64,000 nucleotides of DNA from the NCBI RefSeq assembly GCF_001677475.2, contig NZ_CP015229.1, one strand, 5' to 3'. Shown in pieces: positions 3,349 to 51,358 of this stretch (position 1 is the first letter of the stretch; the number at the start of each line of letters is the position of its first letter). Made by a program: the position numbers and the translations under genes. The stretch is from Escherichia coli. GTDB taxonomy: Bacteria > Pseudomonadota > Gammaproteobacteria > Enterobacterales > Enterobacteriaceae. The notes below the pieces were generated by a model, which was not told the DNA's origin, ran no database searches, and worked only from the letters and a program-made list of their open reading frames with translations.

Positions 3349-4697
3349 CAGGATTTCTCTCCGGCTGCGTTATAAAGCAAGGAATGGCGCTGAAAAAATG
3401 CCTTTAAGGTTGGAATTAGCGAGAGCGCTACATCCAGACATTGCCCAGCGAAGTAAGCAAATGCAGCCCCCAGCACGCCAAACAGATGACAGAACATGAA
3501 CAGCAATACGATGTAGCCGATTGAGGCGATGGTTTGCGCCACGAGAAAAGCGCGCTGTTTTCCCGCCATCAATAGCAATGACTCCTGCGGGAAGCCCAGC
3601 ATCGAAATCACAATTGCGCCCAGCATCACCTGAATCAGGTCATACGCTTCGAGATACTTAACGCCAAACACCAGCGAAATGAGCGGCTTGCCGACGATCA
3701 ACACCGCGAGCGCCACCAGAATACCGATTCCGCCCGCCAGTAAACCGGACTTCACACCTAACAACCAAGGTCTGGTGGTGCGCGGATCTAAACGCATCAC
3801 CTCTGGGTAAAAACTTTTACCCAGCAAACCCGCTGGCGTTCCGGCGGCGTCGAAGAATGTCATGGCGATTTTAAATAACCCGGCGGCAGCGGGTCCTAAC
3901 ACGATCCCCACCAACACTGTGCTGCACGAATTACGCGCCGACCAGATGGAATGGGCAATGTTGGTTGACCAGACAAAACTCCACGAGCCTTTGATGTGTC
4001 GGGCAGACTCAAACAGATTCAATTTGAACGCGTTATGGACATTTCTGCGGCGTAATTCACGTGCGGCAAACCACCAGTACATGGTACCGCCAACAAGATT
4101 CGAGGCGTACCAGGCAATAACAAAACCCGCAAAACCAAAGTCAAAATACCAGGCAACGACGCTCCCCGCTGCACGCAGAAAAGGTTTCGTCGCCTGCTGT
4201 ACAGCAATTAAATCGAAGCGATCTACCGCACGCAGAATGCCGGTCGGCGTGGAGGAAGCCATTGAAGGAATGAGCGTGCAATAGAGCGCTGCCAGCCAAA
4301 AACTTTGGTCATCCAGACCTAATGAATGGGAAAGGAATGGCAGTAAGGCAATGCCGCCGACAATCGCCACCGCGCCGCTGACGATATCCAGCGAGAAGGA
4401 AAAAGAGACGACATTGCGAAATTGCTGCGGATTATTGTTGGTTAATGCTGGTGTTCCGTACTGAACCACCAGCTGCCATGTCTGAAACTTAATAAAATCG
4501 CTGATCGACTTGGCGTACGATTGCACAATCACCAGTACGCCAAACATGGCGGGCGTCATCCCTTTACCGGCACACGAGAGCGCCAACAGACCCAGCAAGG
4601 CGCTCACGACATTACTGGAGCCTAACCAGGCGCTATTGCGAATAATGGTGCGAAACGCGCCATCTGCAAACCAATGTTTGATGTTAAAACCCGCCAA
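3348..4697 (-). CDS. yghQ: Putative MOP/Wzx-type polysaccharide or lipid flippase, full-length 449 aa
   Basis: Polytopic membrane protein of the polysaccharide-biosynthesis (flippase) family; position immediately downstream of yghR as in K-12, where I recall YghQ as a shorter 355-aa product. Confidence 0.8.
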   Translation of the reverse strand: MAGFNIKHWFADGAFRTIIRNSAWLGSSNVVSALLGLLALSCAGKGMTPAMFGVLVIVQSYAKSISDFIKFQTWQLVVQYGTPALTNNNPQQFRNVVSFSFSLDIVSGAVAIVGGIALLPFLSHSLGLDDQSFWLAALYCTLIPSMASSTPTGILRAVDRFDLIAVQQATKPFLRAAGSVVAWYFDFGFAGFVIAWYASNLVGGTMYWWFAARELRRRNVHNAFKLNLFESARHIKGSWSFVWSTNIAHSIWSARNSCSTVLVGIVLGPAAAGLFKIAMTFFDAAGTPAGLLGKSFYPEVMRLDPRTTRPWLLGVKSGLLAGGIGILVALAVLIVGKPLISLVFGVKYLEAYDLIQVMLGAIVISMLGFPQESLLLMAGKQRAFLVAQTIASIGYIVLLFMFCHLFGVLGAAFAYFAGQCLDVALSLIPTLKAFFQRHSLLYNAAGEKS

Positions 4698-35888: not shown

Positions 35889-38147
35889 TTACTCTTCGCT
35901 ATCACCACTGCTGGCACGGCGAGGAGAGTCGATCTCAACACGATCGATACGCTGCAAACCGCGCATCAACGTACCGCGGCGTCCACGTTCGCCAGTGACT
36001 TTCTGTAGCTCTTCCGGACGCAGTTTAATTTTGCGTTTCCCAACATGAATGGTCAGCGTGCTTTGCGGCGGCAGAACGTACAGTTGCGCAAGACCATCTT
36101 CTCCACGCGCGGCTTCTGCCGATGGAATGTTGATAATCTTGTTGCCTTTGCCCTTCGACAGCTGCGGCAGATCGCTTACCGGGAACATCAACATACGGCC
36201 TGCCTGAGTGATTGCCAGCAGCATATCGGAAGCATCTTCAATCACCACCGGCGGCATAACATGGGCATTTTCCGGTAAGGTGATCAAAGCTTTACCTGCA
36301 CGGTTACGCGCCACCAGATCGTTAAAGGTGCAGACGAAACCGTAACCCGCATCGGAAGCCATCAGCAGTTTCTGATCGTCGCTTTCCATCAGCATATGGT
36401 CAACGGTCGCCCCAGGCGGCAACGTTAATTTGCCGGTGAGCGGTTCGCCCTGACCACGCGCCGACGGCAGCGTAATCGGGTCAATGGCATAGCTACGACC
36501 GGTGGAATCAACAAACACTACCGGTTGGTTGCTCTTACCTTTCACCGCCGCTTTGAAGCTATCACCCGCTTTATAATTCAGGCCCGGCGCGTCGATATCA
36601 TGGCCTTTAGCGCTGCGTACCCAGCCCATCTGCGACAGCACAATAGTGACAGGTTCAGACGGCAGCATGTCGTGCTCGCTCATCGCTTTCGCTTCTTCGC
36701 GTTCCTGCAACGGCGAACGACGATCGTCACCGTAGGCTTGCGCGTCTGCCTGCAGTTCTTTCTTCAGCAGGTTATTCATTTTACGCTCGGAAGCCAAAAT
36801 GCCCTGCAACTGGTCGCGCTCTTTTTCCAGCTCACTCTGCTCACCGCGAATCTTCATCTCTTCCAGTTTGGCAAGATGACGCAGTTTCAGTTCGAGGATC
36901 GCTTCCGCCTGGGTTTCCGTAAGGCCAAACCGCGACATCAGCGCCGGTTTCGGTTCATCTTCATTACGAATGATCTCAATCACTTCGTCGATATTGAGAA
37001 ACGCCACCAGCAAACCTTCGAGGATATGCAGGCGCTTGAGGACTTTCTCCAGACGATAGTTCAGTCGGCGGCGCACGGTATCGCGGCGGAACACCAGCCA
37101 TTCAGAGAGGATTTCCAGCAGGTTTTTCACCGCCGGACGACCATCCAGACCGATCATATTGAGATTAATGCGATAGCTCTTTTCCAGATCGGTGGTAGCG
37201 AAGAGGTGGTTCATCACCTGATCCATATCCACGCGGTTGGAACGCGGCACAATCACCAGACGGGTCGGGTTCTCGTGGTCAGATTCATCGCGCAGATCGT
37301 CAACCATCGGCAGCTTTTTGTTGCGCATTTGCGCAGCAATTTGCTCCAGTACGCGCGCACCTGAAACCTGATGCGGCAATGCGCTGATAACCACCGCACC
37401 ATCTTCTTTCTTCCACACCGCGCGCATACGCACTGAACCACGTCCGTTCTCGTAGATTTTACGGATCTCGGCGCGCGAAGTGATAATTTCCGCTTCAGTC
37501 GGATAATCCGGCCCCTGCACGATATCCAGCAGCTGATCGAGCGTGGTTTTCGGCTGGTCGATTAATGCGATTGCCGCCTGAGCCACTTCACGCAGGTTAT
37601 GCGGTGGAATATCGGTCGCCATGCCGACGGCAATACCGGTGGTACCGTTAAGCAAAATGTTTGGCAGACGGGCAGGTAGCATTTTCGGCTCCTGCAAAGT
37701 GCCGTCGAAGTTTGGTACCCAGTCAGCCGTCCCCTGCCCCAGCTCGCTCAATAGCAGCTCGGAATATTTCGACAACCGGGATTCGGTGTAACGCATTGCC
37801 GCGAACGATTTCGGATCGTCCGGCGCGCCCCAGTTCCCCTGACCATCAACCAGCGGATAACGGTAAGAGAACGGCTGCGCCATCAGGACCATCGCTTCAT
37901 AACAGGCGCTATCGCCGTGCGGATGGTATTTACCCAGTACGTCACCGACTGTACGGGCCGATTTTTTAAATTTGGCGCTGGCATTCAGGCCCAGCTCAGA
38001 CATCGCATACACAATGCGGCGCTGAACAGGTTTCAGACCATCACCAATAAACGGCAACGCACGGTCCATGATCACGTACATGGAGTAGTTTAAGTAGGCG
38101 TTTTCCGTAAATTCATGTAGCGCAAGGCGCTCTGCCATATCGCTCAT
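35889..38147 (-). CDS. parC: DNA topoisomerase IV subunit A (752 aa)
   Basis: GyrA/ParC N-terminal catalytic region with active-site AAMRYTE. Confidence 0.97.
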
Positions 38148-38284
38148 TAATTCTGATTCCTCAACTTATTCGCCAGCCTTCAAAGGGGCAATATTGCCGG
38201 AGATACTACATTATCTGCCGCGTCGAGTCACAGGAGATCAGCGTGAATAGCGCCGCCGGACGTGCTCCGACGGCGATAAAGGCA

Positions 38285-39892
38285 TCAATGTGCCTTGATA
38301 TACAACTCTTTGCTGTAGACATAATCCTGGGGATTATGCAGCGGAAAACCGCCAACGTAGGGTTTAAGCAGTTTGATTAACGGCTGATAGTAGATAGGAA
38401 TCAGCGGTGCCTGTTGGTTGATGATCACTTCTGCCTGCTGATACAACGCATTACGCTTTGTCGCATCAGTGATCTGCGTGGCCTGGTTTAGTAAGGCGTC
38501 ATACTGCGCATTTTTCCAGTGACCGACGTTTTCTTCACTATCGCTTTTGAGCGTGTTCAGGAAGCTGGAAGCATCATTGTACGTCGTATCCCACGACTGC
38601 CGAGACAGCATGAAATCACCGGCTCGTCGGGCATCAAGATAGGTTTTCCACTCCATTGTACGCAGCGTCACCTGTGCACCCAGCCATTTTTTCCATTCGG
38701 AAGACAACGCTATCGCGGTCTTTTCATGCAGATCGTACTTGTTGTAGAACAGCTCAAAGCGTAGCGGATGAGAGGCGTCGTATCCCGCCTGTTTCAGCAA
38801 GGCTTTTGCCATCGCGACGCGCTCACTCATTGGCTTTTGCAGTTCATCGAACGTCGTCGTGCTAAAGCCTTTTACCTCTGGCGGCGTCAGCGTGGTTGCG
38901 GGCGTTCTCAACCCCAGTACCTTTTGCGCAATAAGCTGTCGATCAACCGTAAGATATAGCGCCCGACGCACTCGCACATCGTTAAATGGCGGTTTCTCAA
39001 GGTTAAAGTTGTAATATTCGCTGTTCAGACGCGGGATAATTCGTAGCTCGCCAGGCAGTGATTTTTCAATGGCAGGAATTTGCTGCGCCGGAACCCAGGT
39101 GAGATCGACCTCTCCCGCGCGATAGCGGTTATAGCCGGTGACCGAATTATCCAGCGCCAGATACTCAACTTGTTGCAATACTGTATGTTGCGCATCGCGG
39201 TACTTTGGATTTTTGCGTGCAGTAATCTTTTCGTTAACTACCCACTGTTCAAGCACAAAGGCACCGTTGTAAACCATGTTCTCTGGCTTACTCCAGCTAT
39301 CGCCATGTTTAGCGATGACATGATGAGGAACCGGGAACAGCGTCGGCCAGGCGAGCATCGTCGTGAACCAAGGAACCGGCTGCTCAAGCGTAACTTCAAG
39401 AGTACGATCATCCGTCGCTTTGACACCCAGCGATGTAACATCTGCTTTACCCGCAACAATAGCCGCGGCATTGTTAATGTGCGCCTGTGCCAGATAGCCA
39501 GCAAAAGGGCTTGCCGTTTTCGGGTCAACCGCGCGCTGCCAGCCGAGGACAAAATCCTCTGCCGTCAAAGGCTGACCGTCTGACCACTGCAAACCGCTAC
39601 GCAGATGGAAAATATAGCGCTTGCCGCCGTCCAGTATCTCCCAGCGTTCAGCCTGAGCGGGCTGCACCTGGCCTTCACCGTCCATCCATACCAGACCTTC
39701 AAACAGATCCAGCACAATCTGCGCGGCAGTATTCTCCTCCACCTTTTGCGGGTCGAGCGTACCTGGGTCGCTATGATTGTTGTAACGAAAGACTTGTTGC
39801 GGGGCGAGCGGTGTGTTGGCGGGAACGTCAGCAGCGTAGAGAGGTGCCGCACTTACCAGGCTGACCAGCCATAATAAATTTCGCGTATACAT
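38285..39892 (-). CDS. ygiS: Periplasmic oligopeptide-type ABC substrate-binding protein (535 aa)
   Basis: Family 5 SBP with signal peptide; start at internal Met (MYTRNLLW). Confidence 0.88.
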   Translation of the reverse strand: MYTRNLLWLVSLVSAAPLYAADVPANTPLAPQQVFRYNNHSDPGTLDPQKVEENTAAQIVLDLFEGLVWMDGEGQVQPAQAERWEILDGGKRYIFHLRSGLQWSDGQPLTAEDFVLGWQRAVDPKTASPFAGYLAQAHINNAAAIVAGKADVTSLGVKATDDRTLEVTLEQPVPWFTTMLAWPTLFPVPHHVIAKHGDSWSKPENMVYNGAFVLEQWVVNEKITARKNPKYRDAQHTVLQQVEYLALDNSVTGYNRYRAGEVDLTWVPAQQIPAIEKSLPGELRIIPRLNSEYYNFNLEKPPFNDVRVRRALYLTVDRQLIAQKVLGLRTPATTLTPPEVKGFSTTTFDELQKPMSERVAMAKALLKQAGYDASHPLRFELFYNKYDLHEKTAIALSSEWKKWLGAQVTLRTMEWKTYLDARRAGDFMLSRQSWDTTYNDASSFLNTLKSDSEENVGHWKNAQYDALLNQATQITDATKRNALYQQAEVIINQQAPLIPIYYQPLIKLLKPYVGGFPLHNPQDYVYSKELYIKAH

Positions 39893-40000
39893 GGTATTCC
39901 TTACCGGAGAAATTATAAGCCCAATAACAATACGCCTGTGGCATTGTTCGCTCAAACTTATCGCGAGTGATTTGGCTCACACTCCGGTAAAGATTCCCCA

Positions 40001-40483
40001 TCACGCTAACGGTACATAAACATCCGTTTCCAGTCGCTGCTCTGTCACCCCTTCGGCAAGATTGGTGTAGTGAAACAGAATCGGTGCTTTACGCATTTTC
40101 TCGCCGCTTGCAGGCAGCCAGTGGCGAATAATGCCCCATATCGTGTGTGAAATATCGTCCAGCTCGCCAACATGGCGGGTAACAGCATAACGCCCACCGG
40201 TAAGTTCGCCATTACTCACGCCATAACGATTATCGGGGATCGGTTCGCTAACGCTGCCGCAGATATCAAAGCGAAACGCTTCCGGTGCGGTGGTGGCAGG
40301 GTCGTCCCAGGCGACGCCAAAAGTCTGGCTTTGGTTAACAGGAGAAAGCCCCGTCTCTTTACGCCACATGATAAATTTCGCCACGCTGTAGTTGAGCAAC
40401 TCAGGGCTACAGCGGTGCGGCAACATCGCCACAGGGATTGATGGGAAATCGATAATATTTACATCCAGTGTCAGGTTTGTCAT
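40001..40483 (-). CDS. ygiV: GyrI-like small-molecule-binding domain protein (160 aa)
   Basis: SbmC/GyrI-like fold; position upstream of ygiW. Confidence 0.85.
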   Translation of the reverse strand: MTNLTLDVNIIDFPSIPVAMLPHRCSPELLNYSVAKFIMWRKETGLSPVNQSQTFGVAWDDPATTAPEAFRFDICGSVSEPIPDNRYGVSNGELTGGRYAVTRHVGELDDISHTIWGIIRHWLPASGEKMRKAPILFHYTNLAEGVTEQRLETDVYVPLA

Positions 40484-40535
40484 TTTGCCTCCCTGCGAAA
40501 TTATTCCCGGGAACGCGTCCCGGGAGCGGTAACAA

Positions 40536-40928
40536 TTACGGATTTACTTTGCGGATCTGTTTGACGTCAATTTCAACAGAATTCCAGTCTTTATCGACTT
40601 CCCCCTGAATCTCAACCGTATCTTTCGGCGTCACCGTCACGCCGTTCCAGCGTTTGTGGTCGATATCAACATTGATAGTACCGCTGGCATCTTTGAACAC
40701 GTAGAGATCGTCAGAGATGCGTTCAACGATATTGCCGCGCAGGGTTACCCAGGTGTCGTCACGCAGGGATTTTGCGCTTTCTACAGTCGTTACGCTGCCA
40801 TTCGGCCCCTGGAATCCTCCGGCCTGACTTTGCGTTGCCGATGGGCCAGAAAAACCGCCCTGCTCTGCTGCCATCACCGGTGCGCTGCACAGGGCCATTA
40901 CTGCGATTACTGCTGCGAATTTTTTCAT
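40536..40928 (-). CDS. ygiW: BOF (OB-fold) periplasmic stress protein (130 aa)
   Basis: Signal peptide MKKFAAVIAVMALCSAPVMA. Confidence 0.9.
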   Translation of the reverse strand: MKKFAAVIAVMALCSAPVMAAEQGGFSGPSATQSQAGGFQGPNGSVTTVESAKSLRDDTWVTLRGNIVERISDDLYVFKDASGTINVDIDHKRWNGVTVTPKDTVEIQGEVDKDWNSVEIDVKQIRKVNP

Positions 40929-41079
40929 GTTTATTACTCCCTTTAATGTCTGTTTCCGAGCATTTAACAAGATAGTCCTTAACAACTTCTTAAGGGAAAA
41001 AAATAAAATTTAATGCTGTACAGAGCGCGTTACAACACGGTTTACTGGCAGCAAATACGGTTATCGCAGGGATGAAAAA

Positions 41080-41739
41080 ATGCGAATTTTACTGATAGAA
41101 GATGACATGCTGATTGGCGACGGCATCAAAACGGGCCTTAGTAAAATGGGTTTTAGCGTCGACTGGTTTACACAAGGTCGTCAGGGAAAAGAGGCGCTAT
41201 ACAGCGCACCTTATGATGCGGTGATCCTGGATTTAACCTTACCAGGCATGGATGGTCGCGATATTTTGCGCGAATGGCGAGAAAAAGGTCAGCGTGAGCC
41301 GGTATTGATCCTGACCGCGCGCGATGCGCTGGCGGAACGTGTAGAAGGGCTGCGTCTGGGAGCTGACGATTATCTGTGTAAACCTTTTGCGTTGATAGAA
41401 GTCGCCGCCAGGCTAGAAGCTCTGATGCGCCGAACCAACGGCCAGGCCAGCAACGAGCTGCGCCACGGCAACGTCATGCTCGACCCCGGCAAACGTATCG
41501 CCACACTGGCTGGCGAACCCTTAACGCTGAAACCAAAAGAATTTGCCCTGCTGGAATTACTGATGCGTAACGCTGGTCGGGTACTGCCGCGCAAACTGAT
41601 TGAAGAGAAACTGTATACCTGGGACGAAGAGGTCACCAGTAATGCCGTTGAAGTGCATGTGCATCATCTGCGACGCAAACTCGGCAGTGATTTTATTCGT
41701 ACCGTTCATGGTATTGGCTACACATTAGGTGAGAAATGA
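41080..41739 (+). CDS. qseB: Two-component response regulator, OmpR family (219 aa)
   Basis: [15 protein letters not shown] receiver domain plus winged helix. Confidence 0.96.
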
Positions 41740-43085
41740 AATTTACCCAACGTCTTAGTCTGCGAGTCAGGCTGACGCTAATCTTTTTAATTCTGGCCTC
41801 GGTGACCTGGCTGCTTTCCAGCTTTGTCGCCTGGAAACAAACAACGGATAACGTCGATGAGTTGTTCGACACCCAACTGATGCTGTTTGCCAAACGGTTA
41901 AGTACGCTCGATCTCAACGAAATCAACGCGGCAGATCGCATGGCACAGACGCCAAATAAATTAAAACACGGTCATGTTGATGACGATGCGCTGACCTTTG
42001 CCATCTTTACCCACGACGGCAGAATGGTCCTTAACGATGGCGATAACGGAGAAGATATTCCCTATAGCTATCAGCGGGAAGGTTTTGCTGACGGGCAACT
42101 GGTCGGTGAAGACGATCCCTGGCGTTTTGTCTGGATGACCTCACCTGATGGCAAATATCGCATCGTTGTTGGTCAGGAATGGGAATACCGCGAAGACATG
42201 GCGCTGGCGATTGTTGCCGGGCAATTGATCCCGTGGCTGGTCGCACTGCCGATTATGTTAATCATCATGATGGTACTACTGGGTCGTGAACTCGCGCCGC
42301 TGAACAAACTGGCGCTGGCACTACGTATGCGTGACCCTGACTCGGAAAAACCACTAAACGCGACGGGCGTACCTAGCGAAGTGCGTCCACTGGTTGAGTC
42401 GTTGAATCAACTGTTCGCCCGCACACATGCGATGATGGTTCGTGAACGACGCTTTACCTCCGACGCAGCTCACGAACTACGTAGCCCGTTAACGGCGCTG
42501 AAAGTGCAAACCGAAGTTGCGCAGCTCTCTGACGATGATCCGCAGGCGCGGAAAAAAGCGCTGCTTCAATTACATTCCGGAATCGATCGCGCTACTCGTC
42601 TGGTTGATCAACTGCTCACGCTATCGCGGCTGGACTCACTGGATAACCTTCAGGACGTCGCGGAGATCCCGCTTGAAGATCTCCTGCAATCGTCGGTGAT
42701 GGATATTTACCACACGGCGCAGCAGGCGAAAATTGACGTGCGACTGACACTCAATGTCCAGGGCATCAAACGCACCGGACAACCGCTATTGCTAAGTTTG
42801 TTGGTGCGAAACCTTCTGGATAACGCCGTGCGTTACAGTCCACAGGGTAGCGTGGTAGACGTCACGCTGAATGCCGATAATTTCATCGTGAGGGATAACG
42901 GCCCCGGTGTGACGCCAGAGGCACTGGCGCGAATTGGCGAACGCTTCTATCGCCCACCCGGGCAAACCGCTACCGGCAGTGGACTTGGGCTATCGATTGT
43001 CCAGCGAATCGCCAAATTGCATGGCATGAATGTTGAGTTTGGGAATGCGGAACAAGGTGGATTTGAGGCGAAGGTAAGCTGGTAA
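41736..43085 (+). CDS. qseC: Sensor histidine kinase (449 aa)
   Basis: H-box AAHELRSPL; 4-nt overlap with qseB. Confidence 0.96.
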
Positions 43086-43194
43086 GGGTAAGACTTTTGC
43101 TAAATTCGCAAAAGACTTTGCACATTTTGCTAATTTCACCGTACCGCTCTGTGACGTACTATAGTCGACAAACGTCTCACCTTGAGGTTAAAAA

Positions 43195-43776
43195 ATGAGC
43201 AACATCCTGATTATCAACGGCGCGAAAAAATTCGCCCACTCCAATGGTCAACTGAACGACACCCTGACCGAAGTCGCGGATGGCACACTGCGCGACCTCG
43301 GGCATGATGTCCGCATCGTTCGCGCCGACAGCGACTACGATGTCAAAGCGGAAGTACAAAACTTTCTCTGGGCTGATGTGGTGATCTGGCAGATGCCAGG
43401 CTGGTGGATGGGCGCGCCGTGGACAGTGAAAAAATACATTGATGATGTATTCACCGAAGGTCACGGGACTCTGTATGCCAGCGATGGTCGTACCCGCAAA
43501 GATCCGTCGAAAAAATACGGCTCCGGCGGCCTGGTACAGGGCAAAAAATATATGCTTTCTCTGACCTGGAACGCACCAATGGAAGCCTTCACCGAAAAAG
43601 ATCAGTTCTTCCACGGCGTTGGCGTTGACGGTGTGTATCTGCCGTTCCATAAAGCAAACCAATTCCTCGGTATGGAACCGCTGCCGACATTTATCGCTAA
43701 TGACGTGATAAAAATGCCTGATGTTCCCCGCTATACTGAAGAATATCGCAAGCATCTTGTGGAAATTTTTGGTTAA
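43195..43776 (+). CDS. mdaB: NADPH:quinone oxidoreductase, flavodoxin-like (193 aa)
   Basis: MSNILIINGAKKFAHSNGQLNDTL. Confidence 0.95.
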   Translation: MSNILIINGAKKFAHSNGQLNDTLTEVADGTLRDLGHDVRIVRADSDYDVKAEVQNFLWADVVIWQMPGWWMGAPWTVKKYIDDVFTEGHGTLYASDGRTRKDPSKKYGSGGLVQGKKYMLSLTWNAPMEAFTEKDQFFHGVGVDGVYLPFHKANQFLGMEPLPTFIANDVIKMPDVPRYTEEYRKHLVEIFG

Positions 43777-43806
43777 CTAGAGCTCAGGCTTTAGAAGGAG
43801 TTAACC

Positions 43807-44121
43807 ATGCTTACCGTAATCGCAGAAATCCGTACTCGTCCTGGTCAACATCACCGTCAGGCGGTATTGGATCAGTTTGCTAAAATCGTTCCAACCGTAC
43901 TGAAGGAAGAAGGTTGCCACGGCTATGCGCCGATGGTGGATTGCGCTGCTGGCGTGAGTTTCCAGTCTATGGCGCCGGACTCTATCGTGATGATTGAGCA
44001 GTGGGAAAGCATCGCGCATCTTGAAGCGCACTTGCAGACCCCGCACATGAAAGCGTACAGCGAGGCCGTAAAAGGCGATGTGCTGGAGATGAATATCCGC
44101 ATCCTGCAACCGGGGATTTAA
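43807..44121 (+). CDS. ygiN: Quinol monooxygenase, ABM domain (104 aa)
   Basis: MLTVIAEIRTRPGQHHRQAVLDQF. Confidence 0.95.
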   Translation: MLTVIAEIRTRPGQHHRQAVLDQFAKIVPTVLKEEGCHGYAPMVDCAAGVSFQSMAPDSIVMIEQWESIAHLEAHLQTPHMKAYSEAVKGDVLEMNIRILQPGI

Positions 44122-44130
44122 CATTCCTGA

Positions 44131-44158
44131 AAAGAGGCCGGTGTTGCTACCGGCCTCA
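44131..44158. terminator. Terminator hairpin at the left island junction (between ygiN and the island regulator gene)
   Basis: gaggccggt-gttgct-accggcctc; T-run on the minus strand. Confidence 0.6.
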
Positions 44159-44165
44159 GGTCAGA

Positions 44166-45053
44166 TTAGCCATTCTTTCTTCCCGTTTTCAAACCCCGAT
44201 GGAAATCGTTAATTCGCTTAATGGTTTTAACCGCACGCTGCGGCATCGCGGAAGCCACCGACCAGACAATCATTTCCAGGCACAACAATACCGTACCATG
44301 TAGTGGCGTTTTCCCCTTTTCATCCCCGCGCGGAACATGAATCACGATACTGGCGTCTTTGCTAAAACGTGAATCCAGCGCGTTTGTCAGCAAAATAACA
44401 GGGATCCCCAGCCGCCTCGCCTCACGAAGCGTTGTCAGCCCTTCCCGGTGCGCAGATTTTTGCGCCATCATGATCAGAACATCGCCACGTTGAAGCGCGA
44501 TCAGTTGCTCGGCAAGGCCAATACCCGTACGGTTTAGTGCCGTGGCAGGCAAACCTATGCGGTTGAATAGTCGTGCGGTATAGTCCGCCAGAATACCCGA
44601 AGCGCCAATGCCAAAAATTGCGACTTGCCGTGCCTGCACCAACAACGCTACCGCTTGCGCAAGCGCGTGGCGGTTTTCAGGCTCTGACAGGACATTACAA
44701 GTATACAAATGCCCTTCAAGAACAAAGTCGATTGCGGTGTTAACATCGCTCGTCAAGTTACTCACCGTCGTAGACATCTTTTCGCTGGAACTAAGGGCTG
44801 GACCAAGCCACTGTTCCAGAGTGCGTCTCAGATCACGCAGCCCGGCAAACCCCAGAGCCTGTATAGCCCTGATAACTGTGGCATCGGAAGTGTTCAACGT
44901 GGCCGCAATTTCCATCGCCGTTTGCTCGAGTACCACTTCACGATGCTCATTAATGTAGCTTGCGACAGCTCTTAACCCAGGCGTTAACTGACTCGCGCGA
45001 GTGCGAAAACGCTCACCATAAATATCAACCCGCGTTTTGTCTTTCTGGATCAT
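44166..45053 (-). CDS. RpiR/MurR-family transcriptional regulator, HTH plus SIS domain (295 aa); candidate regulator of the adjacent iron-uptake genes
   Basis: N-terminal HTH (TAMEIAATLNTSDATVIRAIQALGFAGLRDL) and C-terminal sugar-isomerase-type domain; start overlaps the upstream SBP gene stop (4 nt). Confidence 0.8.
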   Translation of the reverse strand: MIQKDKTRVDIYGERFRTRASQLTPGLRAVASYINEHREVVLEQTAMEIAATLNTSDATVIRAIQALGFAGLRDLRRTLEQWLGPALSSSEKMSTTVSNLTSDVNTAIDFVLEGHLYTCNVLSEPENRHALAQAVALLVQARQVAIFGIGASGILADYTARLFNRIGLPATALNRTGIGLAEQLIALQRGDVLIMMAQKSAHREGLTTLREARRLGIPVILLTNALDSRFSKDASIVIHVPRGDEKGKTPLHGTVLLCLEMIVWSVASAMPQRAVKTIKRINDFHRGLKTGRKNG

Positions 45054-45997
45054 TTAGCCTCCGGTAGAGGTCGTCCCGCAATTTGTGATTGTATCTGCGC
45101 AGCCATCAGCCCCAGAGATGCAAAGGAGTTAGAAATCGCCTCTTCACGAGAAATCAGCACATAGCGCCCGGAACGACAGGCCGTCAGAAACTGACACCAT
45201 CCCGGCATGACTTTTTCCATTGCTGCCAGCTCATCCTGAGGTTTACCACCGGTGTCACCGCGCCAGGTTGCAAAAACAAAATCGGCATCCAGTTCAGGTA
45301 AACGCTCTGCGCTCACATCCATTCGCCCACCTTCAGGAATGCTCTCAATCAGCGGCGGAAAGCGAAAACCAGCATCGCGTAATACCCGCCCCAGCGAATG
45401 ATAGCTATGCATCACATTAATTTTTCCCTGATTTGCCTGAATCACCGATACCGTTATTTTTTGGCTGTCCAGCGTCGCCTTCAGCGCATTGATTTGTGCC
45501 TGATAGCGGCGTTCAAGTATCGCCAGCTGCGACTGCGTTCCTGTAAGTTCTGCCAGCTTGCGGTAGATTTCTGGCGCGCCTCCTTTGAGATGATCAATGC
45601 TCACCGTGGGCGCAATTTTTTCCAGTTGTTCAATGGGCGTATTACGGGTCGGTTCTGTGATGATCAGGTCAGGCTTTGCCGCCACAATCGCTTCAATATC
45701 AATATCAGCGGTGCCAATAAAAGCGATCGATGAATTATCAAAGTCGACACCTGTCAATAACGCGCCTGATCGAATGAAATGGCTACCGTCAGGCCGGGTT
45801 CGCCCGTGGCTGGCGACAGGAGGTACACCGAGCTCAATCAGAGGAATAGTGATATCAAGATCGTGTAAAGAGACAATTCTCTTTGGATGAGCAGGAACAG
45901 TGACTTTGCGCCCTAAATCATCAGTAAAGACCTGAACAGGTTCTGTCGCGCGGGCAAAGAATGACAACAGTATCAGCAGAGAAAAAAATAAACGCAT
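45050..45997 (-). CDS. Periplasmic iron-siderophore ABC substrate-binding protein, FecB/FhuD-like
   Basis: Signal peptide MRLFFSLLILLSFFARA; cluster-8 SBP architecture. Start at Met22 of track ORF to avoid overlap with the upstream permease. Confidence 0.8.
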   Translation of the reverse strand: MRLFFSLLILLSFFARATEPVQVFTDDLGRKVTVPAHPKRIVSLHDLDITIPLIELGVPPVASHGRTRPDGSHFIRSGALLTGVDFDNSSIAFIGTADIDIEAIVAAKPDLIITEPTRNTPIEQLEKIAPTVSIDHLKGGAPEIYRKLAELTGTQSQLAILERRYQAQINALKATLDSQKITVSVIQANQGKINVMHSYHSLGRVLRDAGFRFPPLIESIPEGGRMDVSAERLPELDADFVFATWRGDTGGKPQDELAAMEKVMPGWCQFLTACRSGRYVLISREEAISNSFASLGLMAAQIQSQIAGRPLPEAK

Positions 45998-46007
45998 ATA
46001 ACTCCCA

Positions 46008-47057
46008 TTAAAAACTGTTCCTGCGCTGCCAGAGCAGTAGCAAAAAGAATGGTCCACCAATCAATGAAATAATGATTCCGGCAGGCAGTTGCAAAGGCAA
46101 AAAAGCCAAACGACCAATGCTATCCGCCAGGATGACTAACAACGCCCCCGATACGGCGCTCCCCAGCAGTAATGTCGTCTGCCCGCCACGTAGAATAAAA
46201 CGTGATATATGGGGTGCTATCAATCCGACAAAACCGATGTTACCAACACACGAAACGCAGACGGCTGTCAGGATTATTGGTGCGGCGACACGTAACAACG
46301 CCAGACGAGAACTATTCACCCCTAACCCGGTTGCAACCTGATGACCAAGCAGAGCGATATCCGCCGTCCTGGCGGTGAACAGCAATAAAAGAGCGGCTGG
46401 CAACATCCAACAGGCTGAAATACCGACTAACATCCAGTTAGCTGCATGCAGGCTTCCCGATAACCACATCAATGCAGTTTGTACATCTCGAACATCTGCA
46501 GTGGTCATAAATACACCGATACCGGCGGCGAAAAACCAGGAAACACCAATACCAATCAGAACAAATCGCGGGCGGGAAATATCGCGTGCACAAAAAATCA
46601 CGATTAAAGCCACCAACAAGCCACCAGCAAGACCAGCCACTGGACGCCAGAACATTCCCAGCATTGGAAACTGGAAGATCAGCCACAGCACCGCCACGCT
46701 ACATCCTTCTTTGACGCCGATTAAACCAGGATCGGCAAGGCCGTTACGCGCAATGGATTGCATCGCGGCCCCCGCCATACCTAACATGGCTCCGCATAGC
46801 AATGCCATGATGACTCTCGGCAAGCGAATATCCTGCACAATATAACGTGCGTCTGTGCTTACGTTTTCTGGAGCAAACAACGCTCGTCCTACTTCCGATG
46901 CCGGGACAGAAAAAGAACCATGCATCAGACCGAATATCAGTATTCCAACCGCAAACAGAAACAGCCCACCAAGCAACACCAGATTTTTAGGGCGTACCAG
47001 TGTCGAAAACTTACCAACACGTAGTGGACGTAGCCCGACGTTCATTATCCGACTCAT
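46008..47057 (-). CDS. Iron-siderophore ABC permease, FecCD family (349 aa)
   Basis: Polytopic membrane protein with FecCD-type glycine-rich helices. Confidence 0.85.
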   Translation of the reverse strand: MSRIMNVGLRPLRVGKFSTLVRPKNLVLLGGLFLFAVGILIFGLMHGSFSVPASEVGRALFAPENVSTDARYIVQDIRLPRVIMALLCGAMLGMAGAAMQSIARNGLADPGLIGVKEGCSVAVLWLIFQFPMLGMFWRPVAGLAGGLLVALIVIFCARDISRPRFVLIGIGVSWFFAAGIGVFMTTADVRDVQTALMWLSGSLHAANWMLVGISACWMLPAALLLLFTARTADIALLGHQVATGLGVNSSRLALLRVAAPIILTAVCVSCVGNIGFVGLIAPHISRFILRGGQTTLLLGSAVSGALLVILADSIGRLAFLPLQLPAGIIISLIGGPFFLLLLWQRRNSF

Positions 47058-48037
47058 TTGAACATCCTCGTCGCCATAATGACAAAAACAGGCGCACCAA
47101 CTAACGCCGTCATGACACCGGTCGCTAACTCATGGGGCGTGAAAAGCGTCCGAGCAATAATATCTGCCAGTAATAACAAAAGCGCGCCGACACAAGCTGA
47201 AAGAGGGAGCAGAACGCGCAGATCCGCTGATACCAGACGCCTGACAATCTGCGGTACTAGCAGGCCGACAAAACCAATGGGGCCAGCAATCGATACGGCT
47301 GCGCCACAGAGCAACGCGATCGCAAGCAGAGTGAATGTTCGCGTGCGGAGTACCGAGACGCCCAGCCCCTGCGCCATGCGATCACCCAGTGCCAACATGT
47401 TAAGAGAGGGCGCAAGGTAAATGGCTAACACAACCCCCCCCAGAGAAAACCAGGCGGACGTACCCAGCGTCGCCCAATCCTGCCCCGCTAAATCACCTGC
47501 TAGCCATGTCCGCATCGCCAGCAGTGTTTGTTCGTCAAGAATCAGGATTGCAGCCGTTATTGAGGACACGAACGCCGATAGCGCCACGCCGCATAAAGTA
47601 ACTTTCATTGGCGTTAACCCTGAACGCCCTGCGGAGGAAAGCAGCAATATCAACAGGAACAATAACGCGCCCCCCGTAGATGCCAGCAGTGGGCGTCCAA
47701 CCGGAAAGGCCAGTCCAAGCGCACTGGCGGCAACGACAGCAAGAGCGGCTCCGGCATTTAAGCCTAAAATATGTGGCTCCCCCAATGGGTTACGAATGAC
47801 AGCCTGCAACAAAGCACCAGCAACTCCAAGAGAAGCACCGGTAAGCAATGCTGCCGCTAAACGCGGCAAACGGAGTCTTACAATTACGTTGTGATCGAAG
47901 TTTTGCGGTTCAAAATGAAGAAATGCCTGCAACACCGTTTGTGGTGCAATAAATCGGGCACCAATCCCTGGATATACCACGCATCCCACCAGCAGTAAGG
48001 CGAGGAAAATTACAGTAACCAGCCCTGTGCGCATCAT
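47054..48037 (-). CDS. Iron-siderophore ABC permease, FecCD family (327 aa)
   Basis: Paralogous to the adjacent permease; 4-nt overlaps on both sides. Confidence 0.85.
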   Translation of the reverse strand: MMRTGLVTVIFLALLLVGCVVYPGIGARFIAPQTVLQAFLHFEPQNFDHNVIVRLRLPRLAAALLTGASLGVAGALLQAVIRNPLGEPHILGLNAGAALAVVAASALGLAFPVGRPLLASTGGALLFLLILLLSSAGRSGLTPMKVTLCGVALSAFVSSITAAILILDEQTLLAMRTWLAGDLAGQDWATLGTSAWFSLGGVVLAIYLAPSLNMLALGDRMAQGLGVSVLRTRTFTLLAIALLCGAAVSIAGPIGFVGLLVPQIVRRLVSADLRVLLPLSACVGALLLLLADIIARTLFTPHELATGVMTALVGAPVFVIMATRMFK

Positions 48038-48843
48038 ACTTTTTCTACACCACGAAACGGCATGAAGAACGGCTTTCCCGTCAGAGGATTTATTGATGCG
48101 TGAACATCAACGTCAAAGACAGCTTTTACCAGCTCAGGCGTGCAATGCTCCCCCTCATTCAACACACGCACCACTTTCCCCTGGCGTAAAAATATCAACG
48201 TATCGCCATAATTGACGGCAAAATTCAGATCATGCAACACCACGACGACTGTACGCCCGTGATGACGCGTTAAGTCATGTAATAACTCAAGAATTTCAAC
48301 CTGATAACGTAAATCAAGCCAGGTTGTGGGTTCATCCAGCAGGATATAAGGCGTCTTTTGCGCCAACACCATCGCAATCCAGCAACGCTGGCGCTGCCCA
48401 CCAGAGAGTTTTTCAACCGGTAAATGTGCAAACTCCTGCGTACCGGTTAATTTCAGGGCCTCTTCTACCGCCTGCTCGTCGGCGTCGCTCCATTGACGTA
48501 TGAAATTTTGCCAGGGAAAACGCCCACGCGACACCAGTTCATAAACGGTTAAGCCCTCCGGCAATAATGGCGACTGCGGCAAGATCCCAAGTCTACGGGA
48601 TAACGCTTTCGTTGGTTGCTCGTGAATCGCTTTACCATCCAGCAATATAGAGCCGCCCATAGGCTGCAAGATACGTGCAATGGTGCTGAGCAACGTCGAC
48701 TTTCCACAGCCGTTTGCCCCAACCAGAACGGTCATTTTTTCTGTGGGAACGGAGAAAGAAACACCATCAACAATGATCTTCTTGTGATACCCGGCAGAAA
48801 CATTGTCGAGGATCAGCCCCTGCCCTTTTGCGTTATGTGCCAC
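48034..48843 (-). CDS. Iron-siderophore ABC ATPase, FecE/FepC-like (269 aa)
   Basis: Walker A GANGCGKST, signature LSGGQRQR, Walker B ILLDEP. Confidence 0.9.
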   Translation of the reverse strand: MAHNAKGQGLILDNVSAGYHKKIIVDGVSFSVPTEKMTVLVGANGCGKSTLLSTIARILQPMGGSILLDGKAIHEQPTKALSRRLGILPQSPLLPEGLTVYELVSRGRFPWQNFIRQWSDADEQAVEEALKLTGTQEFAHLPVEKLSGGQRQRCWIAMVLAQKTPYILLDEPTTWLDLRYQVEILELLHDLTRHHGRTVVVVLHDLNFAVNYGDTLIFLRQGKVVRVLNEGEHCTPELVKAVFDVDVHASINPLTGKPFFMPFRGVEKV

Positions 48844-49216
48844 GTGTACGCCAACTTAATCAAAGACAAACAAAAATAAAACTCATTCTCTTTTGAGAGT
48901 TTGACGCCACAAAATGTAGTAGTCAAGAAGTTAAAATCCATACAAAAACAAGGTAAATAACAGGTGAAATATTTTTAAAGATAAAAATAAAATCATTAAA
49001 TATTAATAAATTACCATCAATTAAATTGCATTAACCTCTCATAAAAACACATGTAGCAATTTTTTGTTATTTCTCATTTACTACTACATTACCGCATGGT
49101 TGAATGATTCTCAATTACATATCCGATGGTGAAATAACAAACGGATAGTGCTTAGTGAGCAACAAGAAACAATTTTCACTCACGACAATCCGTGAGTTTT
49201 TGGGATAACAGACTAA
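48844..49216. promoter_or_regulatory. AT-rich divergent promoter region of the iron-uptake island with candidate Fur boxes
   Basis: 373-bp AT-rich spacer; ttgaatgattctcaattac and aaaatcattaaatattaat resemble the Fur-box consensus. Confidence 0.45.
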
Positions 49217-51358
49217 ATGGCTAAGTTCACACCTTCATTCTCAGGAATCAAAGGTCGGGCGCTCTTTTCACTGCTCTTTGCAGCACCGATGATTCATGCA
49301 ACCGACACTGCAACGACCAAAGATGGCGAAACAATCACTGTTACAGCGGATGCAAATACCGCAACTGAGGCGACCGATGGTTATCAACCTCTGAGCACCT
49401 CCACGGCGACATTAACCGATATGCCGATGCTGGATATCCCGCAAGTGGTCAATACGGTTAGCGATCAGGTTCTGGAAAATCAGAATGCGACGACGCTGGA
49501 TGAGGCACTTTATAACGTCAGTAACGTGGTACAGACCAATACATTAGGCGGAACTCAGGACGCCTTTGTACGTCGTGGGTTTGGTGCTAACCGGGATGGC
49601 TCCATCCTGACCAACGGTCTGCGAACCGTACTTCCTCGCAGCTTCAACGCTGCAACAGAACGTGTGGAAGTGCTAAAAGGCCCGGCCTCCACGCTGTATG
49701 GCATTCTTGATCCTGGCGGACTGATTAACGTCGTGACAAAGCGCCCGGAAAAAACATTCCATGGTTCTGTATCAGCCACGTCCTCCAGTTTTGGCGGAGG
49801 CACTGGGCAACTGGATATCACAGGTCCCATTGAAGGCACTCAGCTGGCATACCGCCTGACGGGGGAAGTGCAGGATGAAGATTACTGGCGGAATTTCGGT
49901 AAAGAGCGCAGCACATTTATTGCCCCATCACTCACCTGGTTTGGTGATAATGCAACAGTAACCATGCTCTATTCACATCGGGATTATAAAACGCCGTTCG
50001 ATCGTGGAACGATTTTCGACCTTACGACGAAACAGCCCGTAAACGTTGATCGAAAAATACGTTTCGACGAACCGTTTAATATTACAGATGGTCAGTCCGA
50101 TCTGGCGCAACTCAACGCAGAATATCATCTCAATAGCCAGTGGACAGCGCGCTTTGATTACAGCTACAGCCAGGATAAATACAGCGATAATCAGGCTCGT
50201 GTTACCGCGTATGATGCAACGACAGGAACGCTGACACGGCGTGTTGATGCAACTCAGGGATCTACCCAGCGTATGCATTCTACTCGTGCGGATCTACAAG
50301 GGAATGTTGATATTGCTGGATTCTATAATGAGATTCTGGGTGGGGTGTCATATGAATATTATGATCTTCTGCGGACAGATATGATCCGCTGTAAAAACGC
50401 TAAAGATTTCAATATCTACAACCCTGTTTATGGCAATACCAGCAAATGCACAACGGTCTCGGCGTCGGACAGCGATCAGACGATCAAACAAGAGAGCTAC
50501 TCAGCATATGCGCAAGATGCGCTCTATCTGACCGATAACTGGATTGCCGTCGCTGGGATCCGCTATCAGTATTACACGCAGTATGCGGGTAAAGGCCGTC
50601 CTTTTAATGTCAATACTGACAGCCGCGATGAACAATGGACGCCCAAACTGGGGTTGGTCTACAAACTGACGCCATCGGTATCCTTATTTGCCAATTATTC
50701 GCAAACATTTATGCCGCAATCGTCAATTGCCAGCTACATTGGCGATCTTCCACCGGAATCATCTAATGCTTACGAAGTCGGGGCAAAAGTCGAGCTGTTC
50801 GATGGTATAACCGCAGATATTGCGCTGTTTGATATCCATAAACGTAACGTGTTGTATACCGAAAGTATTGGTGATGAAACCATCGCCAAAACGGCAGGCC
50901 GCGTTCGTTCAAGAGGGGTAGAAGTCGACCTTGCGGGAGCATTAACTGAAAACATTAATATCATTGCCAGCTACGGCTATACCGATGCTAAGGTTCTGGA
51001 AGATCCTGATTATGCAGGGAAACCATTGCCGAATGTTCCTCGTCATACCGGTTCGCTATTCCTGACCTATAACATTCATAACATGCCAGGCAATAACACA
51101 CTGACGTTTGGCGGTGGTGGACATGGCGTAAGCCGTCGTTCGGCAACCAATGGGGCTGACTATTATCTGCCAGGCTATTTCGTTGCCGATGCCTTCGCCG
51201 CATACAAAATGAAATTGCAGTATCCGGTCACACTGCAATTAAACGTCAAAAACCTATTTGATAAAACGTATTACACCTCTTCCATCGCCACAAATAATCT
51301 GGGGAATCAGATTGGCGATCCGCGTGAAGTGCAATTCACGGTGAAAATGGAATTTTGA
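49217..51358 (+). CDS. TonB-dependent outer membrane siderophore receptor (713 aa)
   Basis: TonB box ETITVTA after the signal peptide; plug domain and C-terminal aromatic terminus (VKMEF). Confidence 0.9.
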   Translation: MAKFTPSFSGIKGRALFSLLFAAPMIHATDTATTKDGETITVTADANTATEATDGYQPLSTSTATLTDMPMLDIPQVVNTVSDQVLENQNATTLDEALYNVSNVVQTNTLGGTQDAFVRRGFGANRDGSILTNGLRTVLPRSFNAATERVEVLKGPASTLYGILDPGGLINVVTKRPEKTFHGSVSATSSSFGGGTGQLDITGPIEGTQLAYRLTGEVQDEDYWRNFGKERSTFIAPSLTWFGDNATVTMLYSHRDYKTPFDRGTIFDLTTKQPVNVDRKIRFDEPFNITDGQSDLAQLNAEYHLNSQWTARFDYSYSQDKYSDNQARVTAYDATTGTLTRRVDATQGSTQRMHSTRADLQGNVDIAGFYNEILGGVSYEYYDLLRTDMIRCKNAKDFNIYNPVYGNTSKCTTVSASDSDQTIKQESYSAYAQDALYLTDNWIAVAGIRYQYYTQYAGKGRPFNVNTDSRDEQWTPKLGLVYKLTPSVSLFANYSQTFMPQSSIASYIGDLPPESSNAYEVGAKVELFDGITADIALFDIHKRNVLYTESIGDETIAKTAGRVRSRGVEVDLAGALTENINIIASYGYTDAKVLEDPDYAGKPLPNVPRHTGSLFLTYNIHNMPGNNTLTFGGGGHGVSRRSATNGADYYLPGYFVADAFAAYKMKLQYPVTLQLNVKNLFDKTYYTSSIATNNLGNQIGDPREVQFTVKMEF

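Follow-up and report, generated by a model that had tools for sequence, protein, structure and literature searches.

The qseC–mdaB spacer of the analyzed window, a stretch of 64,000 nucleotides from the Escherichia coli contig NZ_CP015229.1, probably preserves the ancestral, never-interrupted form of this region, in which the ygiZ islet was never acquired and the sequence upstream of mdaB acts as an mdaB-ygiN control region with MarA-type activation. The spacer is 109 bp long (43086-43194) and contains a conserved block which, as read from the sequence, is most likely the promoter and activator-binding region of mdaB-ygiN. The features of the locus are as follows.

41736-43085, plus strand: qseC (sensor kinase), with its TAA stop at 43083-43085, from the open reading frame and the qseC annotation in matching E. 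coli records.
43086-43090: insertion slot, empty here; its few bases, GGGTA, separate the qseC stop from the conserved block upstream of mdaB (from junction alignments).
43094-43114: palindrome CTTTTGC-TAAATTC-GCAAAAG, with the family-wide core TTGC-N7-GCAA and a variable centre.
43099-43113, plus strand: marbox-like site 1, GCTAAATTCGCAAAA, two mismatches to gcannwwntgnnaaa (PMC12052159 S2 Table).
43108-43130, no strand assigned: near-invariant 23-nt block, GCAAAAGACTTTGCACATTTTGC, exact in 68/84 sequences.
43120-43134, plus strand: marbox-like site 2, GCACATTTTGCTAAT, one mismatch, from a pattern search and PMC12052159 S2 Table.
43128-43136, plus strand: alternative extended -10-like element TGcTAATTT, a reading of the sequence that fits the K-12 start mapping to ~43143.
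43157-43162, plus strand: candidate -10 TACTAT of the mdaB-ygiN promoter, a TAnnnT at a fixed position.
43184-43187, plus strand: mdaB Shine-Dalgarno GAGG; TGAGG is conserved in most species.
43195-43776, plus strand: mdaB (NADPH:quinone oxidoreductase).
43807-44121, plus strand: ygiN (quinol monooxygenase), co-transcribed with mdaB in Salmonella (RT-PCR, PMC2653508).

In E. coli K-12 MG1655, qseC ends at 3171833 and mdaB starts at 3172530, and the gap between them accommodates ygiZ (b3027), a 110-aa gene on the minus strand at 3171879-3172211. The first-pass annotation was correct in placing a K-12 inner-membrane gene of ~110 aa between qseC and mdaB, in the opposite orientation; the K-12 gap, chosen beforehand as the test of its claim that this gene is missing here, is 696 bp and not ~110 bp, and the claim stands. 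tblastn detected no homologue of YgiZ (E <=1e-3), nor of the Hcp and 236-aa proteins that accompany it in other strains, in the 64-kb window, and it matched YgiZ in all five positive-control loci (L001, L002, L004, L017 and L076); the absence of ygiZ is real. The spacer is also devoid of ORFs, as had been noted, apart from a mechanical 33-aa TTG ORF at 43097-43198, the only one that overlaps it. This ORF was rejected as a gene, since 71 to 78 nt separate the conserved block from the mdaB ATG, depending on the species, and the reading frame is accordingly not kept. An Rfam search of 42800-43500 (E <=1) returned no match, and therefore no known sRNA or riboswitch; simple promoter and terminator scans of 42900-43400 made no calls.

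To place this spacer in a family-wide context, the MdaB locus was collected from one genome for each of 80 Enterobacteriaceae species, and qseC, ygiZ, hcp and the gene for the 236-aa protein were located by tblastn. The analysis revealed a qseC-to-mdaB gap of 105-115 nt in 74 of these 80 other species, including E. albertii and two further Escherichia species, Salmonella enterica subspecies arizonae and diarizonae, and members of Citrobacter, Klebsiella, Enterobacter, Kluyvera, Leclercia and Raoultella. Among the 80 species, only Citrobacter werkmanii and a Pseudocitrobacter MAG have the full islet at the insertion slot, and E. whittamii carries a ygiZ-only form. The islet has a G+C content of 34%, compared with 50-52% in the qseC and mdaB flanks. 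The window junction, TGGTAA-GGGTA-AGACTTTTGC, is that of E. albertii except for two bases (matching sequence GGTAAGACTTTTGC). To judge from the gap lengths, the G+C content of the islet and the E. albertii-like junction, the ygiZ-free 109-bp spacer is the ancestral state and it is K-12 that carries an insertion. The oddity that the first-pass annotation had attached to the missing gene is thus reversed, the 109-bp spacer being the family-wide arrangement.

Larger apparent qseC–mdaB gaps were recorded in Leclercia adecarboxylata (343 nt), Kluyvera genomosp. 3 (633 nt) and an Enterobacteriaceae isolate (147 nt; L072); the first two (L043 and L060) are probably artefacts, because the tblastn alignment of QseC ends early in them (query residues 371 and 274, respectively). 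In C. werkmanii (L017, 2215-4000) and the Pseudocitrobacter MAG (L076, 2075-4000), the three-gene cassette occupies a ~10-nt slot before the TTGC-N7-GCAA box. The divergence of its proteins is similar to that of QseC, and no integrase or transposase was found within either islet; an ancient polymorphism or repeated insertion may account for this shared position.

The frequency of the islet within E. coli was surveyed in 5,426 complete genomes, with the flanks found in 5,425. ygiZ is present in 4,582 of the 5,426, which leaves ~825 genomes (15%) with an empty site, and hcp together with the 236-aa gene is present in 1,262. Accordingly, three states of the locus can be distinguished: full islet (~23%), ygiZ alone (~61%) and empty (~15%). 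The empty form is exemplified by strain cq9 and O139:H1 pig isolates, whose junction is identical to that of the window. The K-12 form has 587 extra bp with ygiZ at the 43086-43090 slot. The Nissle/B2 form has ~1.7 kb at the same slot, encoding on the minus strand Hcp (159 aa), the 236-aa hypothetical protein and ygiZ. Relative to the Nissle form, 1,261 bp covering the 236-aa protein and Hcp are replaced in K-12 by 131 bp of unrelated AT-rich DNA directly upstream of ygiZ, a stretch that also occurs in E. whittamii; a simple deletion of the Nissle form was therefore rejected as the origin of the K-12 form. The best matches to the window among the 5,426 genomes, the O139:H1 pig strains and cq9, share only 98.8-99.0% identity with it (36000-50000 and 42600-43700), and the set therefore contains no close representative of its lineage.

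A lineage that once had the islet and lost it by precise deletion, leaving a secondary empty site, would explain why ygiZ is carried by 85% of complete E. coli genomes, and it is in keeping with a decaying islet, given the replacement of the K-12 effector and hcp genes by 131 bp and the presence of the ygiZ-only form in E. whittamii as well. However, an unaided deletion would seldom recreate a junction two bases away from that of E. albertii and of the length found in 74 other species, and tblastn finds no islet remnant in the window. The right-end flank of the K-12 islet, GTCAGAGTAAGA, also speaks against loss, since it fits the allele of another Escherichia sp. (L007) and not the GTAAGGGTAAGA of the window. 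We regard such a loss as very unlikely. Replacement by recombination with an empty allele is possible and would look identical to ancestral retention. Retention of the never-interrupted spacer is the reading we follow below.

The K-12 flank was also considered as part of an att-like duplication of the qseC 3' end around the islet; the candidate was rejected, the resemblance being limited to 10-12 nt (GTCAGAGTAAGA) shared with the L007 allele, and a retained original flank appears to be the better reading of this sequence. The L007 locus itself (Escherichia sp. MOD1-EC7003, ~3885-3900) has TCA at the position of the qseC stop, and its gene is two codons longer (TGG TCA GAG TAA).

Within the islet, the gene order is Hcp, the 236-aa protein and, last, ygiZ, which encodes a DUF2645 protein. 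The first of these was assigned to TssD (Pfam T6SS_HCP, 1.6e-19; TIGR03344, 2e-58, above cut-off). APEC hcp2B was considered as the islet hcp and rejected, as it lies at a different locus, hcp2B-vgrG2 in T6SS2. The 236-aa protein gave no significant match in Pfam, NCBIfam or PDB sequences, either as a single sequence or as a profile. Its family comprises 34 clusters, all hypothetical, from E. coli, Citrobacter, Pectobacterium, Erwinia, Serratia and Chania. The alignment reveals an invariant Glu in AWIE(S/T)GG, followed by TSFGS...Q and then RYNRG, motifs that we take to resemble the ES, GLMQ and AYNxG of family-1 lytic transglycosylases. Foldseek returned weak matches, including a goose-type lysozyme (E ~0.16, TM 0.42-0.53), and the protein is predicted to adopt a lytic-transglycosylase/lysozyme-like fold.

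The order Hcp (159 aa)–236-240 aa–DUF2645 (110-112 aa) recurs in E. coli, C. werkmanii, Pseudocitrobacter, Pectobacterium, Serratia and Chania, and the genes of the cassette abut or overlap by 4 nt. The neighbors differ among hosts: the cassette is flanked by pagP and an EamA gene in Pectobacterium and adjoins a transposase fragment in Chania, and in Serratia it is found on a 75.6-kb record, near a gene for a RepB-family regulator. An Hcp gene thus stands at the head, and a small co-oriented downstream gene is co-inherited with the candidate effector across contexts, as in type VI secretion system (T6SS) cassettes. By this anatomy, the islet would be an orphan Hcp-effector-immunity module, and ygiZ a candidate orphan type VI secretion immunity gene, a concept established in the T6SS literature (PMC6730261). 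On balance, we lean towards the view that ygiZ/DUF2645 would confer immunity to Hcp-associated T6SS effectors of a new family, whose fold would be lytic-transglycosylase-like. The nearest comparison is with the Tge/Tgi glycoside-hydrolase pairs (e.g., Tse3-Tsi3), from which the cassette, read here from its genes alone, differs in two respects. The 236-aa protein is not a member of Tge1-3 by sequence, as it has no Pfam, NCBIfam or PDB match, and the putative immunity protein resides in the inner membrane and has three helices, in contrast to the known Tgi proteins, which are periplasmic and either soluble or lipoproteins.

Our literature search found no paper linking ygiZ or DUF2645 to T6SS; for ygiZ it returned only regulation by BglJ-RcsB/H-NS and sabinene tolerance, and for DUF2645 nothing. 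The ygiZ promoter was reported to be activated by BglJ-RcsB, together with other loci, some of them repressed by H-NS (PMC3950696). Regulation of this type is typical of imported DNA and fits such an origin for ygiZ.

The palindrome and the second TTTTGCTAA copy described in the first-pass annotation were found at 43094-43114 and 43125-43133, respectively. The palindrome consists of the arms CTTTTGC (43094-43100) and GCAAAAG (43108-43114) around the centre TAAATTC (43101-43107), and allowing one mismatch extends the arms to 14 nt (43090-43118). The repeat is direct, with TTTTGCTAAATTC (43095) and TTTTGCTAATTTC (43125) 30 bp apart, and its second copy lies inside marbox-like site 2. To analyze conservation, the 125 nt upstream of mdaB were compared in 84 sequences, i.e., the window and 83 loci from the 80 other species. 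The block GCAAAAGACTTTGCACATTTTGC is exact in 68 of them, with a per-column conservation of at least 90%, and TTGC-N7-GCAA is found in 81/84 with a freely variable 7-nt centre; the perfect 7-bp palindrome is confined to Escherichia and Salmonella. A TAnnnT hexamer (TAAAAT, TAGAAT, TACTAT, TAACAT and others) occurs at a fixed +37 from the G of GCAC in 83/84 sequences. The hexamer of TGcTAATTT is unconserved, reading TCATTT in about half of the species. Marbox-like site 1 is present with 0-2 mismatches in 62/84 and site 2 with 1-2 mismatches in 77/84 sequences. The region to the right of AGACTTTTGC is common to all three E. coli forms and is therefore to be assigned to mdaB, outside the islet.

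That the palindrome and the repeat are functionless chance features of an AT-rich spacer might be argued from the inverted repeat by itself, since 6% of shuffled spacers (n=5,000, dinucleotide-preserving) contain a perfect 7-bp one. A 9-mer direct repeat occurs in 1.4% of the shuffles, but the two together in just 0.02%, and the sequences are kept across ~80 species although the bases adjoining the conserved block vary freely; this conservation effectively refutes chance, to which we assign a negligible probability. The 23-nt invariance of the block exceeds the needs of a degenerate marbox, and therefore another factor may be the main constraint; QseB/PreA or a dimer reading the TTGC-N7-GCAA dyad are candidates.

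Marboxes were defined as gcannwwntgnnaaa with at most two mismatches (PMC12052159). Both sites of the spacer match this consensus in the forward orientation, site 2 (GCACATTTTGCTAAT) with one mismatch and site 1 (GCTAAATTCGCAAAA) with two, and a 2025 computational MarA screen lists both as predicted mdaB marboxes (PMC12052159 S2 Table). Marbox-like 15-mers with at most one mismatch number 34 in the window versus 23 expected. The first-pass annotation had proposed that the palindrome is either a terminator or an operator for mdaB, with a possible MarA/SoxS box; the operator is the better supported of the two, as the palindrome and TTTTGCTAA overlap the two predicted marbox-like 15-mers. With a transcription start ~7 nt past the conserved -10 (~43169), the centre of site 2 (43127) would lie at about -42, which is a class II position for forward marboxes (PMC10268841). 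TACTAT was left uncalled by the promoter scan because the scan requires a -35 match. When calibrated on the marR entry and on the coordinate of mdaB in MG1655, the K-12 starts given in PMC12052159 map to ~43095 and ~43143, not to the predicted ~43169; the second corresponds to K-12 start 3170500 of its table. With the ~43143 start, the centre of site 1 would be at -37, in the class II window, and site 2 would overlap the -10. Two tandem promoters upstream of mdaB are possible.

The predicted promoter resembles the class II MarA/SoxS/Rob promoters of micF, fumC and nfsA in its forward marbox-like 15-mer with one mismatch, the lack of a recognizable -35 (TTCACC/TTTCAC here), a good -10, a site centre near -42, and a gene reported to belong to the mar/ram regulon. 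It differs from them in having a second forward marbox-like site 21 bp upstream, within the conserved dyad, and in that typical marboxes are degenerate whereas the mdaB 23-nt core is nearly invariant; the mdaB sites are predicted, and the start is uncertain. mdaB is described as a mar-regulon gene in PMC2989944, which cites Martin & Rosner 2002, and in a Salmonella ramA deletion it was the most reduced gene apart from ramA (3.2-fold; PMC3139621). The portions available to us of the main text and supplement of the Salmonella MarA/SoxS/Rob/RamA ChIP-seq paper make no mention of mdaB.

A close counterpart is the 106-bp preB(qseC)-mdaB region of Salmonella (Merighi et al. 2009, PMC2653508), which is alike in its orthologous gene order, length class, conserved block (L016 and L027) and lack of ygiZ, and differs in the palindrome centre, CAAAAAC versus TAAATTC in the window. 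There, the mdaB-ygiN operon is not co-transcribed with preB across the spacer, and attempts to map the mdaB transcription start were unsuccessful (PMC2653508).

We hypothesize that only ~8 nt past the qseC stop are free and that the remainder of the spacer is the mdaB-ygiN control region, running from the TTGC-N7-GCAA dyad with site 1, through the near-invariant block with the better site 2, to TACTAT, the ribosome-binding site and the ATG. A MarA/SoxS/Rob-type monomer (RamA in other genera) would bind site 2, placed across the missing -35 as at class II promoters, and recruit RNA polymerase. The upstream dyad with site 1 may provide a second activator contact, made by another MarA-type monomer or by QseB/PreA. 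In this reading, ygiZ is missing since the lineage lacks the AT-rich three-gene islet, which was acquired horizontally elsewhere in E. coli into the 8-nt slot and of which K-12 keeps just the last gene, ygiZ.

The roles could also be reversed, with the TTGC-N7-GCAA dyad and the repeated TTTTGCTAAWTTC forming a site for QseB/PreA or another dimer (LysR-type, T-N11-A) and MarA-type activation being secondary. Overexpression of PreA (QseB) activates mdaB 32-fold in Salmonella, and direct binding at mdaB-ygiN was proposed by the authors of that work (PMC2653508); our literature search on QseB and mdaB returned nothing past it. The fixed 7-nt spacing around a variable centre is as expected of a dimer on two half-sites, and the invariance of the block is greater than a degenerate marbox demands. 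Against this, inspection by eye revealed no motif in common with the ygiW-qseB spacer of the window, which is under QseB control, OmpR-family regulators usually sit on direct repeats ~10-11 bp apart and not on dyads, and TTGC-N7-GCAA occurs five times in the window versus 2.8 expected. To our knowledge, no LysR-type or similar dimeric regulator of mdaB has been described. We consider this arrangement unlikely, and MarA-type activation from site 2 is retained as the preferred reading.

The terminator half of the first-pass proposal fared poorly. A qseBC terminator, in which the hairpin CUUUUGC-N7-GCAAAAG blocks read-through into mdaB, would be well placed, the palindrome starting 9 nt past the qseC stop, and the lack of preB/mdaB co-transcription in Salmonella implies that the transcript ends somehow within the spacer (PMC2653508). 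The 29-nt RNA hairpin, at -7.4 kcal/mol, is more stable than all 200 shuffles, and two left-arm changes in Escherichia and Salmonella perfect the stem relative to other genera. Yet the hairpin is weak and A/U-rich: it reaches a z of only -1.1 in a 55-nt context, just two of the seven pairs of its stem are G-C (the scan needs at least three), the stem is followed by ACUUUGCACAUUUUGC, with no U run in the tail ACUUUGCAC, and the terminator scan made no call. Among 79 distinct sequences, 67 have an internal A.A mismatch and 72 a T.G pair, and the loop-closing positions pair in just 38-51% of sequences. No RNA covariation was seen at the palindrome; both arms are invariant as sequence and so offer none to support a stem, and the right arm lies within a block conserved far past any stem. 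A terminator function of the palindrome is thus quite improbable, and we continue to read the palindrome as part of the predicted mdaB-ygiN control region.

A stronger hairpin was found in the K-12 islet directly after the qseC stop (L001, 1987-2040; -18.1 kcal/mol, z -5.1, followed by UUUUAC). Lying between two convergent genes, qseC and ygiZ, it has the appearance of a terminator acting in both directions; its 12-nt loop and 4-U tail kept the simple scan from calling it. No comparable structure follows qseC in island-free strains.

For the locus itself little changes, the window showing the default enterobacterial arrangement and the marbox-like sites of mdaB being already in a published list (PMC12052159). 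K-12 is best regarded as the derived state, and a missing ygiZ should not be taken as a deletion or an assembly problem. ygiZ in turn gains a testable hypothesis as an orphan type VI immunity gene. If true, E. coli would be split at this slot into armed (~23%), immune-only (~61%) and naive (~15%, including the window strain) classes, a split that predicts the outcomes of strain-on-strain killing; island-free strains would be selectively killed by B2-type strains with the full cassette. Similarly, if the proposed arrangement holds, the islet hairpin and the convergent gene would insulate mdaB from qseBC, and island-free strains would keep the ancestral close coupling. The near-invariant 23-nt block is a good target for finding the control of mdaB-ygiN, including the QseB/PreA effect and the transcription start.

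Two further differences between strains were observed nearby. Between ygiS and ygiV (window ~39900-40000), the mqsR-mqsA toxin-antitoxin pair is seemingly absent; in the O139:H1 record, which aligns with the window in one piece, these genes are ~108 bp apart. In strain cq9, mqsR adjoins ygiV, as it does in K-12. A second variable slot, between ygiN and parE (window 44166-~52000), starts with an RpiR-family regulator (44166-45053, minus strand) and a substrate-binding protein (45050-46060, minus strand) and continues onward. According to the collinear O139:H1 record, it contains a MurR/RpiR regulator, an iron-siderophore ABC transporter (binding protein, two FecCD permeases and ATPase) and a TonB-dependent receptor. 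The same content is found in Nissle 1917 and O139:H1, whereas K-12 has ygiN directly before parE, and cq9 carries an MFS transporter, a GntR regulator and an ADP-ribosylglycohydrolase instead.
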